Virus record (IMG/VR): IMGVR_UViG_640753023_000007
DNA: 41,597 nucleotides
Source: a virus
Lineage: Duplodnaviria; Heunggongvirae; Uroviricota; Caudoviricetes
Strand: one strand, 5' to 3'
Both the position numbers and the translations under genes were made by a program. Below, in pieces: positions 1 through 11,171 of this stretch. Numbering within the stretch: the stretch's first letter is position 1; each line of letters begins with the position of its first letter. The notes beneath the pieces are model-generated. The model saw nothing but the letters and a program-made list of their open reading frames with translations, did not search any database and was not told where the DNA came from.

Positions 1-1143
1 CTATGCTGTTTTGATATCTACGATAATCCAGTCTTTACCACGATCATCATTGTATCGGTCGGTCATTTTTCTGGATTTATGGCCTAACAACTTTTGCGTA
101 TCCAGACCCTGTTCCCGATATAACCGTTCTGACAGAGATCGCTGCTCATGAAATGTGGGCGCAGTTCCTTGCTCCCATTTTATGCCACATTTTTCCCGGG
201 CCTTTTTAAAAGCCGTTGTCAGAGTATTCGCAGAAACCTGGTCTCCTCTGTTTGCTTGAGAGGTAGTGTGACGGTAATGGACCAGATATTTACTAACAAC
301 AGCATCCCTGCACTGAGATATAACTTCACGAAGGGTAATATTCAGAGCATCGCATTTCAGGTTAAGCGGAATAGCAAGTTTTGAACCGGTTTTTTCCTGA
401 GTAATGTGCAACATGTCGTCCCATATATCAGAGAATTTCAAATTGCAGATATCGCCTAAACGTTGTCCAGTAACAAGAGCAAGTAGCATGCCGCATTTTA
501 AATAGGGCTGCCGTCTGCTTACGCTGTCAAATATTGCCTGCCATTCGGGCAGTGACAATCTTTGGCGGTTTACTCGATTTCGTGGTTGTTTTGTTGCCTG
601 CGCTGGGTTAAATCCTGGCGGAACATGTCCTGCGTGTTGTGCTTCTTTGAAGACGTCGATCAACACCATTCTCACGACTTGCGCCATCCTGTTATGACCT
701 TCAGCCTTTACAGCATCAATTATTTCGGCAATATCAAGTGCGGTAATATCCTTGAGGTGTTGCATTCCACAATGCTCACGGAAAAGACGAATGGGTTTGC
801 CTTTTTGCCGATAGGAGTTGGGTCTTAGTTCATTATGTTGCAGCCTGTCCTCTTGGATAGAAATATATTTATCAAGCCATTCTGTCACCGTAATGTCTGA
901 GCGCCTGCCTTTCATTCTTTCCAGACGCTCATTGACGCTTAATATTTGTCTGGTACGTTGTTCAGCAATAATGGTATTTGCTTCAGTAGCAACTTGTTTT
1001 GCTTCATTCTCATCAGTTCCTAAGCTATGAAAACGACCGGATAGTGGATGTTTGTATTGCCAATATACCTTTCCGGTTCGCTTATCTAATTTGCAATATA
1101 AATTGGGTATAGAGATTTTGTGAGATCGGGGTCTAGCAGCCAT
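1..1143 (-). CDS. int: Tyrosine integrase (lambda Int family, divergent from lambda Int itself)
   Basis: 380-aa minus-strand ORF whose stop codon is at window positions 1-3; C-terminal region carries tyrosine-recombinase-like segments (TFHEQRSLSERLY, LLGHKSRKMTDRY) alignable to lambda Int; overlaps the upstream xis-like ORF as in lambda. Confidence 0.9.
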   Translation of the reverse strand: MAARPRSHKISIPNLYCKLDKRTGKVYWQYKHPLSGRFHSLGTDENEAKQVATEANTIIAEQRTRQILSVNERLERMKGRRSDITVTEWLDKYISIQEDRLQHNELRPNSYRQKGKPIRLFREHCGMQHLKDITALDIAEIIDAVKAEGHNRMAQVVRMVLIDVFKEAQHAGHVPPGFNPAQATKQPRNRVNRQRLSLPEWQAIFDSVSRRQPYLKCGMLLALVTGQRLGDICNLKFSDIWDDMLHITQEKTGSKLAIPLNLKCDALNITLREVISQCRDAVVSKYLVHYRHTTSQANRGDQVSANTLTTAFKKAREKCGIKWEQGTAPTFHEQRSLSERLYREQGLDTQKLLGHKSRKMTDRYNDDRGKDWIIVDIKTA

Positions 1144-1369: not shown

Positions 1370-1508
1370 TTGTCCTCCTCTTAGCTGCTGAGGGAGTTTG
1401 TGACCGATATATCTGACATGATATTAAGCTCATGGCAGGTACATCTCTTGACTGGTCATAGAGATAAATTTAATGCTGAGAAATGCAGTATTGAATTTAT
1501 CAATTTTT

Positions 1509-1748
1509 CTATTTCCTGCGCATGTCACGTAACTTCTTAATGTGTTCTGCCGTTTCGATCTCTTCTGCTATCCGATCTGCATCAGCTTTATTCACAGGTT
1601 CAAAGTCATGATTAAAGCGGAACATGCTGGCGATACATGTTCTGCCTTTTCGGATGTAGTGAACTTTGTTGTGGGTAGAACGCAGGATTTTGCAGGGAGT
1701 GCCGTGGTGGTCGACGTACCAGGTGTTAGGGTCAATCACTCTGAACAT
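1509..1748 (-). CDS. Hypothetical phage protein (79 aa)
   Basis: ORF in the accessory region between xis and the recombination genes; overlaps the upstream ORF end by 17 nt, suggesting an operon; no recognisable motif. Confidence 0.45.
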   Translation of the reverse strand: MFRVIDPNTWYVDHHGTPCKILRSTHNKVHYIRKGRTCIASMFRFNHDFEPVNKADADRIAEEIETAEHIKKLRDMRRK

Positions 1749-5949: not shown

Positions 5950-6019
5950 ACGGATAGTCCTGGTATTGTTCCATCACATCTTGAGGATGCTCTTCGAACT
6001 CTTCAAATTCTTCTTCCAT
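5933..6019 (-). CDS. Small acidic ORF (28 aa) in the position of lambda orf28
   Basis: Hand translation MEEEFEEFEEHPQDVMEQYQDYPYDYDY; AAGGTG Shine-Dalgarno-like sequence 5 nt upstream of the ATG; overlaps the ral start. Confidence 0.4.
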   Translation of the reverse strand: MEEEFEEFEEHPQDVMEQYQDYPYDYDY

Positions 6020-6162
6020 ATATCACCTTAAATAGTGGATTGCGGTAGTAAAGATTGTGCCTGTCTTTTAACCACATCAGGCTCGGTGGTTCTCGTGTAC
6101 CCCTACAACGAGAAATCGGATAAACTCTATTCACCCCTACAGAGAGCAAAAGAGAAACGCCG

Positions 6163-6744
6163 ATGAACAACTCATGGTGGCAGGAACTAATGCATTTTTT
6201 CCTGCAAGGAATGACACTTAAACAGTTGATTCATATGCTAATCATCCTGATCATATTGATTATTGTTATGCCGGTAAGCGTAAAAGAATGGATAAACCTG
6301 CATAATCCAGAAATCCTTCCTCATTACTGGATGTATTACATCCTGTTGTTTTGCGTTAGCTATGTGCTTAACGGCGTTGTTAATTCCGCTTATCACGCTG
6401 TGACTGAAAGAATTGAGGTATTCGCTGCTCAGAAGCGCAAATCTAAAGAAGAAAAATATGTGCAAGATTTGTTTGATTCGTTAACTCTTGGAGAAAGAGC
6501 GTATTTGGCATTCGCTGTAGCCGCTAATAACCAGCTACAAACGGAAAAGGGCGCTCATGAATCAATTTCATTGCTCAAAAAAGGACTCCTCGTTCGAAGG
6601 CCTCCTGCTGTTGGATATCCTGATACCGACCGTTTCGTTATCCCTGAAAGCTATAGACATGAGTGCTACATTAGGTTTGCCGGGAAGGCAGACAGCCTTA
6701 TGGATGAACTTATCGCTCAGGATAAGCATGGCAAAAACAAGTAA
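6163..6744 (+). CDS. sieB: SieB superinfection exclusion protein
   Basis: 193-aa plus-strand ORF with hydrophobic N-terminal region (LIHMLIILIILIIVMPV) matching lambda SieB; opposite orientation to flanking genes, as in lambda. Confidence 0.9.
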   Translation: MNNSWWQELMHFFLQGMTLKQLIHMLIILIILIIVMPVSVKEWINLHNPEILPHYWMYYILLFCVSYVLNGVVNSAYHAVTERIEVFAAQKRKSKEEKYVQDLFDSLTLGERAYLAFAVAANNQLQTEKGAHESISLLKKGLLVRRPPAVGYPDTDRFVIPESYRHECYIRFAGKADSLMDELIAQDKHGKNK

Positions 6745-6760
6745 TTAGCAAATGAATTTA

Positions 6761-7033
6761 TCATCTCGCCGTCAGTTGTTTTGATTTCCGGTAGCCTGCC
6801 GCGTAAAGAGCTACGTTCGGAAGACAAGTTGAACCTTCATATTTTCTGGTCAACGTTGTCAGAGTTATCACTTCTGCTCTCATTGCTGGTTTGAGCTTGC
6901 ATTGCAAGACCACTCGTGAAGGGGTTGGCCTGTGTAGCTTGTCGGAGCTGATCGCCTCCTGACTTTGCAGATTTGCGCGACGAGCTCTACGGCGAGAAGC
7001 TGCGGTGCCTTTAAATTCTGTTTTTCTGGACAT
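6761..7033 (-). CDS. N: Antitermination protein N (933W/H-19B-like type, not lambda N)
   Basis: Track ORF 6761-7105; start taken at internal Met (MSRKTEFKGTAASRRRARRANLQ, arginine-rich motif) preceded by GGGAGG at 5-nt spacing; C-terminus CLPNVALYAAGYRKSKQLTAR resembles N of 933W-type phages and P22 gp24. Confidence 0.8.
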   Translation of the reverse strand: MSRKTEFKGTAASRRRARRANLQSQEAISSDKLHRPTPSRVVLQCKLKPAMRAEVITLTTLTRKYEGSTCLPNVALYAAGYRKSKQLTAR

Positions 7034-7131
7034 GGATTCCTCCCGAATAAACTTTGGCGATGCAATCTCGAAGCTCCTCCTGAGACGGTTGCTTCGGCAT
7101 TGCATCCCACAGCTTATGTGGTTGGGTGATC

Positions 7132-7177
7132 TGGCTTTTCAGCCACGTAGTCGAGAGTCGACGTTGTTTAAAGAGCC
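7132..7177 (-). promoter_or_regulatory. nutL candidate (boxA-like GGCTCTTTAAACAACG plus boxB-like hairpin UGGCU-GAAA-AGCCA)
   Basis: On the minus strand, a boxA-like element and a 5-bp stem hairpin with GAAA loop, 16 nt apart, about 100 nt upstream of N; mirrored by a similar pair downstream of cro. Confidence 0.6.
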
Positions 7178-7179
7178 TG

Positions 7180-7300
7180 CCAGTCTGTTCCATTTGGCTT
7201 CCAGCGTCCTGCTGACGGTTAAATAGTACGATATGTACTTTACAAGATCAATACAATTTGTTGTAAGTTGGCGTGGTTTTTTATAACGCTTTGTATTTAA
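7180..7300 (-). promoter_or_regulatory. Probable pL promoter / OL operator region
   Basis: Intergenic region upstream of nutL and N; contains a 17-bp near-palindrome TAGTACGATATGTACTT (7224-7240) related to a motif in the cI-cro intergenic region; promoter hexamers not confidently assigned. Confidence 0.4.
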
Positions 7301-7438
7301 TAGTGTTGTTTTTTAGCGTGGATGTATTGCCTCGGCGATGTAAGGAGAGATCAGAATTGCGTGGTTTAGTGGGTTGCATCTATTTATTTTTCAATAAATA
7401 TAATTGGTTATGTGTTTTTAGGTGGGCGAACGTGAGGC

Positions 7439-7466
7439 AAAGAAAACCCGGCGCTGAGGCCGGGTT
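7439..7466 (-). terminator. Intrinsic terminator ending the cI-orfA-orfB transcript (analogous position to lambda tIMM)
   Basis: Minus-strand hairpin AACCCGGC-(loop)-GCCGGGTT followed by TTTTCTTTG, starting 3 nt after the orfB stop codon. Confidence 0.65.
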
Positions 7467-7469
7467 GTA

Positions 7470-8222
7470 TTATGCTGCAAGTCTCTTAACCCAAGTCTCT
7501 CTTTTGGAGAATGGTAGAACTTGGCTTGATTCATGGAAGAGTAAGGAGAGTTGTTGCATTTGATCACCAATTGCTTCGCTGTCTATAACAACAAATCTGT
7601 TGTTATACTCCTCACTTGAAGCTTTAAGATCAATTAGTTTCCCAAGCAATGAGTAAGCACTATTCCAGCTTCCTCCGTGTTTCACGCTTGATGTAAAAAC
7701 GTATTTAGGTATGTCGGTTTTTATTGTTACAGGGACGGTAATTTGATGTCCACTCAAGCCATATACGTTTTCACGAAGAGAAAGTGCGTCTCTAAGCTCT
7801 GTGTGATATAGATAATCAATAACCATACTTTCAAACTTTTCAGCTTGAACTGGCTGATACCAGTCTAACGACAAAGTTGATGCGAGTATACCAGCTCTAA
7901 TTATGTTCGATGTAATCGCACCGACATCCTTTTCTGTTGCCCAAGCAATGATTTCTCCTCGAGCATTGAGTTCTGCGCCTTCTTTAAGCAGTAATTGTCG
8001 TATCTCATCAAGTCGTTTTTTGGTAAGCGAGATCCCTCTTGCCTCCATATTCATTAAGGCATCGCATCTGTCACTAACTAAATACCTACCATTGACTTCA
8101 CGGATAAAGGCACCGACATGCTCTCCATCATCACAGTAAGTGAATGGACTGATAATTCTCAAGGTCTTGCCTATTGGATGGCATTCGAAACCTAGTTGTG
8201 AGATCACTGTTGAGCACATCAT
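7470..8222 (-). CDS. Hypothetical protein orfB (250 aa), second gene of the cassette in the rexAB position
   Basis: Long ORF with ATG start overlapping the orfA stop (ATGA); no transmembrane segment or catalytic motif recognised by eye; AT-rich relative to flanking genes; followed by a terminator. Confidence 0.65.
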   Translation of the reverse strand: MMCSTVISQLGFECHPIGKTLRIISPFTYCDDGEHVGAFIREVNGRYLVSDRCDALMNMEARGISLTKKRLDEIRQLLLKEGAELNARGEIIAWATEKDVGAITSNIIRAGILASTLSLDWYQPVQAEKFESMVIDYLYHTELRDALSLRENVYGLSGHQITVPVTIKTDIPKYVFTSSVKHGGSWNSAYSLLGKLIDLKASSEEYNNRFVVIDSEAIGDQMQQLSLLFHESSQVLPFSKRETWVKRLAA

Positions 8223-8776
8223 ATTCCAAACCCCATTTGCCCCGACTCATCTTCAAGCGGTAAAGGTATTCTCCCAGAGTAAGTTATGTTCAGATGTTTA
8301 CAGAAGTAATTCCAATACCCTACCAGGTCATCTGGGTTTATGTCATCTTCGATTGGAAACGCTATTCTATCACTATAGTATCCAGCTTCTTCATAGTATA
8401 CATGGTAGTGAGCACCGTAAATGATATCTTGGTACTTCGGATGATCGACCTTGTAACTATTCGTGTGTTTGTCAAAGTGATAGGTATCTACCGCGAAAAC
8501 CCTCTTGTTATGATAGAAAGCAATAATATTTATTTTAGGGTAAGAAATCGGGTCATCAGGTTCTGAATCCTGATCTGGTTTCCATTTCAGTTCAAACTTT
8601 AGCCCTTGTATAGGTATACAATCCTCATCCAAGGGGATGATATGGGCTTGTAGCCACATATCAGAGCGACTTGGTTTCTGTTTCCATTTAACGCCAGAAA
8701 AGTTAACTATTTTTTTACAATAAAGTACTTTATCAACTTCTACTTGGCTTGGCTGATAATCATCTATTTTTGCCAA
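8219..8776 (-). CDS. Hypothetical protein orfA (185 aa), first gene of the cassette directly downstream of cI
   Basis: ORF bounded upstream by an in-frame stop; first possible start is TTG at 8776 (next in-frame ATG is 39 codons in); acidic, Tyr/His/Trp-rich; no motif recognised; AT-rich. Confidence 0.55.
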   Translation of the reverse strand: MAKIDDYQPSQVEVDKVLYCKKIVNFSGVKWKQKPSRSDMWLQAHIIPLDEDCIPIQGLKFELKWKPDQDSEPDDPISYPKINIIAFYHNKRVFAVDTYHFDKHTNSYKVDHPKYQDIIYGAHYHVYYEEAGYYSDRIAFPIEDDINPDDLVGYWNYFCKHLNITYSGRIPLPLEDESGQMGFGI

Positions 8777-8815
8777 TGTTTACCGCCCTGTAAATTGTAG
8801 ATAAAAGTGGTTTCA

Positions 8816-9469
8816 TCACCCAAACGTCTCTTCAGGCCATTGGCTGGCGATAACTTTCCCCACAACGGAACAACTCTCATTGCATGGGATCATTGGGTAT
8901 TGTGGGTTTAGTGGCTGTAGAAACACCTGACCGCTATCCCTGATCAGTTTCTTGAAGGTAAATTCATCACCACCAAGTCTGGCTATGCAGAAATCGCCGG
9001 GCTCAACAGCTTGCTCAGGGTCAACCAGAATTAACATCCCGTCAGGAAAGCTGGGTTTGGAACCTGTTGGTGCGGTCATTGAGTTACCTTCAACCTCAAG
9101 CCAGAATGCAGAGTCACTGGCTTTTTTGGTTGTGCTTACCAATCTCTCCGCATCGCCTTTGGTAAAGGTTCTGAGTTCTGGAGAGAACATCCCAGCCTGA
9201 ACATGAGAAAAAACAGGGTACTCATATTGTTTTTTAACTGGGGCCGATGAGTATTCGCCAACAGGTGAAAATGTCCCGTCGTGGTTGAATGATATGTTAT
9301 CAATACCAAGGTATTTAAACACCACACCAATATCACTAAGAGATGGATGACGAGATCCGCGCAACCAGTGTCCAATCCCACCCTGCGTCATACCTAGCTC
9401 TTCGGCTAACTTCTCTTGAGTTATGCCGAGCTCTTTCATTCTGGATCTAGCCAGTTCATACCATTTCAT
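8816..9469 (-). CDS. cI: CI-type prophage repressor (HTH domain plus LexA/S24-like autocleavage domain)
   Basis: Track ORF 8816-9517; N-terminal HTH ([23 protein letters not shown]) and C-terminal S24-peptidase-like region (WLEVEGNSM ... FKKL); start placed at Met with AAGGA 7 nt upstream (9469); 9475 also possible. Confidence 0.85.
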
Positions 9470-9585
9470 TTTCATGTCCTTATTATTACGCTCTGTACTG
9501 GAACCATCCATGCACAATGTGTATTTTTACTTGTATTCGCAAAGTACATATTGTATTTTTTATTCGTGTTTACTATGGAGGGCAT
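9470..9585. promoter_or_regulatory. Divergent pRM/pR promoter and OR operator region
   Basis: 116-bp AT-rich intergenic region between divergent cI and cro; contains AAGTACATATTGTATTT (9542-9558), matching the reverse complement of the OL-region motif at 14 of 17 positions, plus a 9-bp palindrome CACAATGTG. Confidence 0.5.
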
Positions 9586-9801
9586 ATGAGCAACCTACGA
9601 AAATATCGAGAGTCACTGAATATCTCTCAAACAACACTTGCTAAGGCAGTTGGATGCACACAGGGAGCTATCGGACATTGGGAATCTGGTCGTCGCTTCC
9701 CAGACCTTAAAACATGCCGTGCTCTTGTTGCGTGCCTAAACAAGTTAGGCGCAAAAGTCAGTCTTGATGACGTGTTCCCGCCGGAACACAAAGCCGCTTA
9801 A
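9586..9801 (+). CDS. cro: Cro-like HTH repressor
   Basis: Track ORF 9517-9801; start taken at MSNLRKYRESLNISQTTLAKAVG preceded by GGAGG; HTH motif; divergent from cI. Confidence 0.8.
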   Translation: MSNLRKYRESLNISQTTLAKAVGCTQGAIGHWESGRRFPDLKTCRALVACLNKLGAKVSLDDVFPPEHKAA

Positions 9802-9811
9802 TAAGCGGATC

Positions 9812-9857
9812 CGCTCTTTGTAACAACGGACATTCGTCCTACGTCGCTGAAAAGCGA
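9812..9857 (+). promoter_or_regulatory. nutR candidate (boxA CGCTCTTTGTAACAAC plus boxB hairpin UCGCU-GAAA-AGCGA)
   Basis: boxA-like element and 5-bp stem/GAAA-loop hairpin 16 nt apart, just downstream of cro; stem differs from the nutL boxB by compensatory base changes. Confidence 0.6.
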
Positions 9858-9942
9858 GTTCCAAGATATCTGACCAACTAAGGCCATATGCGTTTCCACG
9901 CATACCTTTCAACTAACTATTCACTATTGGAAATCTTAAGAA

Positions 9943-10239
9943 ATGGAAAGAACAAGTTACAGCAAACTATCACAGCGTGACGTTGATCGCGCAGAAACAG
10001 ATTTACTTATCAATCTGTCAGCTATTACCCAGCGCGGTCTGGCAAAGATGATTGGCTGTCATGAATCGAAGATAAGCAGAACGGACTGGAGATTTATTGC
10101 TTCGGTCTTGTGTGCTTTCGGAATGGCATCAGACATCAGTCCGATTAGCAGGGCTTTTAAGTATGCGCTTGATGGACTCACCAATAAAAAACGCCCGGCG
10201 GCAACCGAGCGTTCTGAACAAATCCAGATGGAATTCTGA
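9943..10239 (+). CDS. cII: CII-like transcriptional activator
   Basis: 98-aa ORF; C-terminal segment TNKKRPAATERSEQIQMEF matches lambda CII, N-terminal part divergent. Confidence 0.8.
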   Translation: MERTSYSKLSQRDVDRAETDLLINLSAITQRGLAKMIGCHESKISRTDWRFIASVLCAFGMASDISPISRAFKYALDGLTNKKRPAATERSEQIQMEF

Positions 10240-10271
10240 GGTCATTACTGGATCAATCCACAGGAGTCATT

Positions 10272-11171
10272 ATGACAAATACAGCAAAAATACTCAACTT
10301 CTGCAGAGGTAACTTTGCCAAACAGGAGCGTAATGTGGCAGATCTCGATGATGGTTACGCCAGACTATCAAATATGCTGCTTGAGGCTTATTCAGGCGCA
10401 GATCTGACCAAGCGACAGTTTAAAGTGCTGCTTGCCATTCTGCGTAAAACCTATGGATGGAATAAACCAATGGACAGAATCACCGATTCTCAACTTAGCG
10501 AGATTACAAAGTTACCCGTCAAACGGTGCAATGAAGCCAAGTTAGAACTCGTCAGAATGAATATTATCAAGCAGCAAGGCGGCATGTTTGGACCAAATAA
10601 AAACATCTCAGAATGGTGTATCCCTCAAAACGAGGGAAAATCCCCTAAAACGAGGGATAAAACATCCCTCAAATTGGGGGATTGCTATCCCTCAAAACAG
10701 GGGGACACAAAAGACACTATTACAAAAGAAAAAAGAAAAGATTATTCGTCAGAGAATTCTGGCGAATCCTCTGACCAGCCAGAAAACGACCTTTCTGTGG
10801 TGAAACCGGATGCTGCAATTCAGAGCGGCAGCAAGTGGGGGACAGCAGAAGACCTGACCGCCGCAGAATGGATGTTTGACATGGTGAAGACCATCGCGCC
10901 ATCAGCCAGAAAACCGAATTTTGCAGGGTGGGCTAACGATATCCGCCTGATGCGTGAACGTGACGGACGTAACCATCGCGACATGTGTGTACTGTTCCGC
11001 TGGGCATGCCAGGACAACTTCTGGTCCGGTAACGTGCTGAGCCCGGCCAAACTCCGCGACAAGTGGACCCAGCTCGAAATCAACCGTAACAAGCAACAGG
11101 CAGGTGTGACAGCCTGCAAACCAAAACTCGACCTGACAAACACTGACTGGATTTACGGGGTGGATTTATGA
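10272..11171 (+). CDS. O: Replication initiator O
   Basis: 299-aa ORF matching lambda O (MTNTAKILNFCRGNFAKQERNVADLDDGYARLSNMLLEAY...); contains the ori iterons. Confidence 0.95.
   Translation: MTNTAKILNFCRGNFAKQERNVADLDDGYARLSNMLLEAYSGADLTKRQFKVLLAILRKTYGWNKPMDRITDSQLSEITKLPVKRCNEAKLELVRMNIIKQQGGMFGPNKNISEWCIPQNEGKSPKTRDKTSLKLGDCYPSKQGDTKDTITKEKRKDYSSENSGESSDQPENDLSVVKPDAAIQSGSKWGTAEDLTAAEWMFDMVKTIAPSARKPNFAGWANDIRLMRERDGRNHRDMCVLFRWACQDNFWSGNVLSPAKLRDKWTQLEINRNKQQAGVTACKPKLDLTNTDWIYGVDL
10619..10750 (+). repeat. Lambda-type replication origin: four iterons plus AT-rich region inside O
   Basis: Four direct repeats of about 18-20 bp (consensus ATCCCTCAAAACGAGGGA) at roughly 10619-10705, followed by an A-rich stretch (ACAAAAGAAAAAAGAAAAG). 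Confidence 0.85.

Follow-up and report, generated by a model that had tools for sequence, protein, structure and literature searches.

Which RNA elements would the N antitermination protein of this lambdoid virus act on, and how are they built? The window (the whole stretch of DNA analysed, 41,597 nt; IMG/VR virus record IMGVR_UViG_640753023_000007, Caudoviricetes) carries an N gene and an immunity region, and an original prediction from the sequence alone had placed a pair of N-utilization (nut) sites there, nutL upstream of N (minus strand, 7177..7132) and nutR downstream of cro (plus strand, 9812..9857). We find that these elements are very probably the nutL and nutR of a lambdoid phage with an N of the VT2-Sakai type, at which N would bring about the standard processive antitermination of transcription from pL and pR. 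Judged by sequence and predicted fold, they are members of the lambdoid nut family, with an architecture like that of H-19B and a GNRA tetraloop in place of the pentaloop.

Two predicted nut sites flank the immunity region

A reading of positions 6600..10400 located every predicted element: at each site a boxA-like 16-mer is followed by a spacer of exactly 16 nt and then by boxB, a 5-bp stem with a GAAA loop (Table 1). The 18-mer pattern TACGTSGCTGAAAAGCSA occurs exactly twice in the window, compared with 0.00 expected from 100 shuffles; the short boxA core GCTCTTTR by itself is not significant (4 in the window versus 2.6 expected). A covariance model of the nut site, built from related sites, matched nutL and nutR with 68.8 and 60.5 bits (E = 9.7e-18 and 2.1e-15, respectively) and revealed no third site in the window, where its next best match had an E of 3.5. 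A scan of 6000..11000 with the Rfam 15 covariance models returned no nut or boxB family, with three sub-threshold chance matches elsewhere (E = 0.26 to 0.47).

Each 16-nt spacer also holds a second hairpin and an invariant UACG, both overlooked in the original prediction. The two-hairpin core folded at −11.8 kcal/mol for nutL and −11.9 kcal/mol for nutR (z = −3.4 and −2.7). Both boxB hairpins are closed by a U–A pair, over a loop of 4 nt compared with 5 nt in lambda and P22. The boxB stems had been described as covarying; pairing is indeed kept between nutL and nutR, but within the window this amounts to just one base pair, a G–C flipped to C–G, and the real evidence of covariation comes from relatives (below).

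Overlap with coding sequence had been named beforehand as grounds for dismissing the elements, but both sites lie outside any credible gene and are crossed only by short, unsupported open reading frames (ORFs). nutL is upstream of both annotated N starts, at 7033 (90 aa) and, in older records, at 7105 (114 aa), while nutR falls in the gap from the cro stop (9801) to the cII start (9943). The gene order, sieB–N–nutL–pL/OL–two accessory ORFs–cI–OR/pR–cro–nutR–cII–O–P, is syntenic with annotated lambda, in which Nutl and Nutr occupy the same relative places. Position and synteny, boxA/boxB anatomy and covariation in relatives together support the assignment as nutL and nutR.

The N protein had been assigned to the 933W/P22-gp24 type. 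The family holds: N matches Pfam PF25694 (N_peptide) from end to end (E = 1.5e-32), and P22 gp24, H-19B N and epsilon34 gp43 also match this family; lambda N matches only PF11438 (N36), to which window N has no match. The type is more precisely that of VT2-Sakai, with 98.9% identity to VT2-Sakai N compared with about 41% to the N of H-19B, 933W and HK97 (BLAST). Against P22 gp24 and several other N types, high identity is confined to the C-terminal 24 residues. The arginine-rich motif of window N includes SRRRARRA (residues 13–20).

Both hairpins are conserved with compensatory changes

In 80 IMG/VR loci with a near-identical N (all at least 98%), both boxB sequences are invariant. For greater diversity we drew on a wider sample, of N homologues down to about 40% identity in loci from species-representative genomes and assemblies. 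In each related-N locus searched with the nut model, a first site lies upstream of N and a second, on the opposite strand, downstream of cro (in one, L117, nutR alone reached the model threshold), and loci with unrelated N types gave no match; across the loci searched, nut sites co-occur strictly with a PF25694 N gene.

Among 31 distinct sites, three of the five boxB pairs change on both sides, the outer pair appearing as U–A, A–U, G–C or C–G and the second as C–G or G–C; in the spacer helix, four pairs show two-sided changes. The covariation score was 0.42, compared with 0.10 for shuffles and at most 0.09 for slid partners. The loop of the nutL spacer hairpin varies (CUC, ACAC, ACUC, AUC, GCAC) with the stem kept in close relatives, and in distant relatives the stem reads GGUGA/UCACC or GAUUC(A)/(U)GAAUC; at nutR the loop likewise varies (AUUC, AUAC, AUGAA, GACCC) and the stem is kept. 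MAFFT and the model misalign the 6-bp nutL spacer hairpin of the H-19B type (GAUUCA...UGAAUC), giving 2 to 4 'other' cells per helix 1 pair, although these hairpins are real. The UACG linker was invariant in a 20-sequence alignment, with one CACG among the 31 distinct sites. These comparisons indicate that the boxB and spacer helices are maintained by selection, through compensatory changes across genera.

Several points weigh against reading the elements as functional nut sites. Pairing of the boxB helix, at 100% in the 31 distinct sites, is partly by construction, because the script that first collected them demanded five paired positions; the spacer helix was not used for picking, and the model search recovered the same sites as the script and no others. 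nutL and nutR form two related lineages, so the covariation cells reflect few independent events. Neither pL nor pR was reported by the promoter scan, and their hexamers are weak matches. Lambda naturally has a pentaloop, so a true tetraloop departs from the textbook boxB. The function of window N and its sites is a strong inference.

A variant was seen in one metagenomic contig (L116; positions 76..123, minus strand; N 74% identical), where the nutR boxB reads UCGCC-GAAA-CGCGA, with a C–C mismatch at the loop-closing position, and the nutL boxB has a G–U pair (AGUCA). This could be a sequencing error, a sign of a decaying prophage or a variation that is tolerated.

boxB loop size tracks the N arginine-rich motif

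In the same sample, boxB loop size tracks which form of arginine-rich motif N has: GNRA tetraloops accompany a short motif, and GACAA accompanies a motif with an insertion. Ten N types with the short motif, RRR(A/E)RRAxLQ, carry a GAAA or GCAA loop at each site; they come from Escherichia (three), an unassigned metagenomic contig, Salmonella epsilon34, Enterobacter, Cronobacter, Rahnella and Pantoea-like sources. Both loops are GAAA in the Sakai type, epsilon34, the Enterobacter locus L087 and the Pantoea-like locus L113; Cronobacter (L110) has GAAA at nutL and GCAA at nutR, and Rahnella (L088) has GCAA at both. The long motif, RRRERLK... with a 7-residue insertion (RRRERLKAKALANG), accompanies GACAA at both sites in H-19B and HK97 and at nutR in phage Oslo, whose nutL fell below the model threshold. 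A natural chimera, P0027, joins a Sakai-like body to the long motif; GACAA was predicted for it beforehand and is present at both of its sites. This agreement is what one would expect if N targets the hairpin loop.

The same observations bear on a protein-independent origin, in which the hairpins would not be N targets but would act as terminators or as sites for RNase III or Rho, or would be functionless remnants left when homologous early-region modules recombined. A terminator scan did flag the palindrome of the nutL spacer, on the plus strand, which is the wrong strand for nutL, and rut sites flank lambda nutR, making an overlap with Rho loading plausible. However, neither boxB is followed by the U-tract of an intrinsic terminator (3′ flanks GAUCACCC at nutL and GUUCCAAG at nutR) or was listed as a terminator by the promoter and terminator scan, both helices are kept by compensatory changes across genera, and the sites invariably come as a pair, oriented with pL and pR, together with an N gene. 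A protein-independent role would also not predict that loop type tracks the arginine-rich motif, and we regard such an origin as highly improbable.

A further step is to read the short-motif N and its GNRA-tetraloop boxB (Sakai, epsilon34, Cronobacter, Rahnella and Pantoea types) as a separate, possibly orthogonal, specificity class, interconverting with the GACAA/long-motif class (H-19B, HK97 and 933W) through small indels that are coupled, a single loop base at each of the two nut sites and the 7-residue segment of N. P0027 would then be a snapshot of such a switch. This reading is tentative, and we lean slightly against it. If it is true, sequence would predict whether Stx and other lambdoid prophages that share an E. 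coli cell are insulated from one another or cross-activated through N; loop size and arginine-rich motif could decide cross-activation between Stx prophages, which bears on toxin-phage induction. A novel boxB specificity was already suggested for epsilon34 from its divergent N terminus (Villafane et al. 2008; PMC2629481). Our literature searches found no paper that describes the nut sites of the window or characterizes a tetraloop boxB class experimentally.

Relation to known nut sites and the role of boxA

Comparison with nut sites of the H-19B type, suggested at the outset, revealed the same layout (CAAYG, spacer hairpin, UACG, 5-bp boxB) in the Shiga-toxin phage H-19B, and also in HK97 and with 933W-type N. 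H-19B and HK97 share with the window the nutR spacer hairpin (GGACAUUCGUCC) and the boxB stem (UCGCU/AGCGA) without a difference. Identity is about 90% across the cro–cII intergenic region and, for H-19B nutR, again about 90% when boxA and the loop are set aside. In H-19B and HK97, nutL reads GAUUC-GAAUAU-GAAUC, then UACG, then GCGCU-GACAA-AGCGC. The loop differs from that of the window, GACAA versus GAAA, by a one-base indel at both sites. H-19B N has 127 aa, with a 7-residue insertion (LKAKALA) after RRRER, whereas window N has 90 aa and no insertion; the two share a Pfam family and 58–59% identity over aligned columns. The window sites thus have the spacer dyad of the H-19B/HK97 group but neither its GACAA loop nor its long-motif N. 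H-19B NUT sites have served in assays of the Sen laboratory (PMC3526286 and PMC4499122), where its nutR, with two hairpins, was active in antitermination, N protecting the boxB loop and NusA and Rho protecting the spacer (PMC3526286).

In Salmonella phage epsilon34 (EU570103), the nutR boxB (TCGCTGAAAAGCGA), annotated as 'putative NutR - boxB', is identical to that of the window, and the phage has GAAA tetraloops at both sites and a short motif (GRRRERRAALQ). Its N-like gp43 (120 aa) has an H-19B-like central part and 39% BLAST identity to window N, its nutL stem is CGGCU/AGCCG, and neither of its sites has a boxA consensus.

Lambda shares the genomic positions, the order of boxA then boxB, a GNRA-like loop with a U–A closing pair, and two slightly different sites. 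It differs in its pentaloops (GAAAA and GAAGA on a GCCCU/AGGGC stem), its boxA (CGCUCUUA), a boxA–boxB distance of about 16 nt compared with 31 nt in the window, and the absence of a spacer hairpin; with an N of another Pfam family as well, the window is not of the lambda N/nut type. P22 gp24 shares the C-terminal tail LPxVALYAAGxRKSKQxTAR with window N, and the P22 boxB (GCGCU-GACAA-AGCGC) has a 5-bp stem and a U–A closing pair, but a GACAA pentaloop; its arginine-rich motif (GNAKTRRHERRRKLAIERD) also differs. At P22-like N loci (L091 and L104), boxB follows closely after boxA, with neither spacer hairpin nor UACG.

These comparisons raise the question of whether the same sites work in the H-19B mode, in which boxB, the spacer hairpin and NusA would be needed, boxA and NusB/S10 would be dispensable, and the boxA match would be incidental or modulatory. 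H-19B N reportedly has less need of host factors, as the title of Neely and Friedman's work of 2000 indicates. The core of spacer hairpin, UACG and boxB is common to H-19B and the window, and epsilon34, Enterobacter L087 and H-19B nutL keep CAACG, hairpin, UACG and boxB without a boxA consensus. The window, however, has the boxA consensus, about CGCUCUU(U)A, at both sites, whereas H-19B has none at nutL and CGCUAUUU at nutR. The boxA core (GCUCUUUA at nutL, GCUCUUUG at nutR) is near-perfect at both Sakai-type sites and is conserved in Cronobacter, Rahnella and Pantoea-like relatives, which points to selection on boxA in this lineage. The conservation suggests that boxA and NusB matter in the Sakai-type lineage, and we consider the H-19B mode rather unlikely here.

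In another arrangement, boxA would pair with the 3′ half of boxB, (G/C)GCUCUUU with AAAAGC(C/G), as a competing structure that regulates access of N and Nus factors. This pairing is used by the minimum-free-energy folds of 66-nt nutL and nutR, and the base before GCU, G in nutL and C in nutR, matches the C and G of the respective boxB arms; 'Alternative NUT RNA structures' also appear in the title of a paper on H-19B. Those 66-nt folds, however, are no better than shuffles (z = −1.1 and −1.3), and GCU/AGC and UUU/AAA are already required by boxA and by the boxB closing pair and loop. The informative flanking pair fails in 5 of the 12 distinct boxA-bearing nutL variants (C–C, U–C, A–C). Covariation lends no support to the alternative pairing, which we judged unsupported and consider improbable.

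A model for N action at the window sites

Under the preferred assignment, as nutL and nutR serving standard antitermination, firing of pL and pR would lead RNA polymerase to transcribe each nut site. The nascent boxB would fold into its 5-bp hairpin with a GAAA (GNRA) cap and be bound by the arginine-rich motif of N (residues about 10–22, TAASRRRARRANL), while the consensus boxA (GCUCUUUA/G) would be accessible to the host NusB–S10 dimer, and the spacer, with its small hairpin and UACG, may seat NusA as in the homologous H-19B site. The RNA-tethered N–Nus complex would then ride with polymerase, permitting readthrough of terminators that lie downstream of N (leftward) and downstream of nutR/tR1 (rightward) and so turning on delayed-early genes. 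In the known complex of lambda N with Nus factors, the arginine-rich motif contacts boxB, NusB–S10 contacts boxA, NusA contacts boxB and the spacer, and the N C terminus reaches into polymerase (PMC8632103). N binding, Nus-factor use, antitermination and the exact promoters of the window are inferred.

In kind, such a system is already known: N/nut antitermination is textbook, the architecture is as in H-19B, and the same nutR boxB has stood annotated in epsilon34 since 2008. The gain is one of annotation: a large set of E. coli prophages, comprising VT2-Sakai/Sp5, Stx2 phage 1717, the PA series, ev207/ev017 and PhiR57_1, have records that list N without its RNA targets, and nutL and nutR can now be placed in them. 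The modest twist is a boxB loop of four bases rather than five.

Genetic context and neighbouring elements

The immunity region had been called non-lambda; it is, but it is not new, with cI and cro about 95–96% identical in DNA to VT2-Sakai, Stx2 phage 1717 and the Morioka Stx1/Stx2 phages. The segment 6700..10300 is 100% identical to phages ev207, ev017, PhiR57_1 and PhiR63_2. The N–nutL and cI–cro–nutR–cII pieces have about 95–96% identity to VT2-Sakai, Stx2 phage 1717, PA phages and Morioka Stx1/Stx2 phages, and the two ORFs between these pieces differ.

Table 1 Predicted features of the early region, in order along the window
Feature	Coordinates	Strand	Sequence or structure	Basis or remark
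sieB	6163..6744	+
N antitermination gene	7033..6761	-	90 aa (MSRKTEFKGTAASRRRARRANLQ...), N-terminal arginine-rich motif	Pfam PF25694, phrog_271
N-leader hairpin	7107..7121	-	CCACA-UAAGC-UGUGG	just 3′ of nutL boxB
nutL boxB	7145..7132	-	UGGCU-GAAA-AGCCA, 5-bp stem, GNRA tetraloop	pattern, covariance model
nutL UACG linker	7146..7149	-	UACG	joins spacer hairpin to boxB
nutL spacer hairpin	7162..7150	-	GUCGA-CUC-UCGAC	folding
nutL 16-nt spacer	7161..7146	-	TCGACTCTCGACTACG
nutL boxA core	7176..7169	-	GCUCUUUA
nutL boxA-like element	7177..7162	-	DNA GGCTCTTTAAACAACG, RNA GGCUCUUUAAACAACG	boxA consensus match, kept in Sakai-type relatives
Putative pL	-35 at 7251..7246, -10 at 7228..7223	-	TTGATC, 17-nt spacer, TACTAT	hexamers and homologous record AP005153
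Operators at pL	about 7224..7298		overlapping putative pL	AP005153 features
Intrinsic terminator	7466..7445	-
ORF of 250 aa	8222..7470	-		Pfam DUF1828; PADLOC PDC-M24B, E = 4.7e-10; phrog_1960
ORF of 185 aa	8776..8219	-		weak Pfam DUF6978 match; PADLOC PDC-M24A, E = 4.8e-4
cI	9511..8816	-
Putative pR	-35 at 9526..9531, -10 at 9549..9554	+	TTTACT, 17-nt spacer, TATTGT	hexamers and AP005153
Putative pR, alternative -10	9555..9560	+	TATTTT
cro	9586..9801	+	71 aa	HTH_3
nutR boxA-like element	9812..9827	+	DNA CGCTCTTTGTAACAAC, RNA CGCUCUUUGUAACAAC
nutR boxA core	9813..9820	+	GCUCUUUG
nutR 16-nt spacer	9828..9843	+	GGACATTCGTCCTACG
nutR spacer hairpin	9828..9839	+	GGAC-AUUC-GUCC	folding; identical in H-19B and HK97 nutR
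nutR UACG linker	9840..9843	+	UACG
nutR boxB	9844..9857	+	UCGCU-GAAA-AGCGA	pattern, covariance model; same as annotated epsilon34 boxB
Hairpin at tR1 position	9888..9903	+	AUGCGU-UUCC-ACGCAU, then ACCUUUCAAC
cII	9943..10239	+		O and P next

A GGAGG stands 5 nt before the N ATG at 7033, and the resulting 90-aa length is the form found in homologous protein clusters and in the PhiR57_1 annotation; the 114-aa form starting from the ATG at 7105 appears in older records (VT2-Sakai, AP005153). The agreement of the Shine–Dalgarno sequence, homologue alignment and newer records settles the predicted start at 7033.

A perfect boxA core (GCTCTTTA) also lies within the N coding sequence (6811..6804, minus strand), in the codons of the conserved C-terminal ALY. 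We rejected it as a third nut site, as no boxB lies downstream in the window and the model did not match there. In HK97 and about 10 IMG/VR loci, a GUGA-tetraloop hairpin spanning the N stop codon lies about 34 nt past the N-internal boxA core (for example, L085, about 1500..1545); this hairpin is absent from the window. Some P22-like N proteins, in Brenneria and Lonsdalea loci (L102 and L104), end in ...ITCRGTQKF(R/K)GKS(V/I)PLI, the common AAGHRKSENIT motif running on into a lambda-N-like tail (ITCSGRQKIKGKSIPLI), which hints at a relation between the C termini of lambda and P22-type N.

In AP005153, the promoter at the position corresponding to putative pL bears the label of a CI maintenance promoter. 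At the place of the N-leader hairpin, relatives have CCAAAG-UGAA-CUUUGG or CCAAAGC-GUGA-(C/G)UUUUGG and lambda has CAAAGC-AGAAG-GCUUUG; because these differing stems all remain paired, the hairpin is conserved with covariation, and it may be part of an N-leader regulatory structure of the lambda kind. The hairpin at 9888..9903, about 30 nt past nutR, is conserved in H-19B and HK97, and epsilon34 has a putative tR1 annotated at the equivalent place; it is a putative tR1 terminator.

Just upstream of nutR boxA, a perfect palindrome (CCGCTTA-A-TAAGCGG, 9794..9808) crosses the cro stop codon; the terminator scan picked it up on the minus strand, and it is absent at that position in H-19B and HK97. 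A strong intrinsic terminator with a 12-bp stem followed by TTTTTTATT lies within the 3′ end of cII (10188..10215, minus strand); no Rfam family matched, and its position is that of the lambda OOP antisense RNA terminator. Between cI and pL, the overlapping 185-aa and 250-aa ORFs occupy the slot of rexAB, which holds other genes in VT2-Sakai-type relatives, and are followed by the terminator at 7466..7445. We read these PDC-M24-like ORFs as unrelated to the nut sites beyond filling the slot between them; by their domain matches, the pair (7470..8776) is a candidate for an anti-phage defence system of two genes that the prophage would express together with cI.

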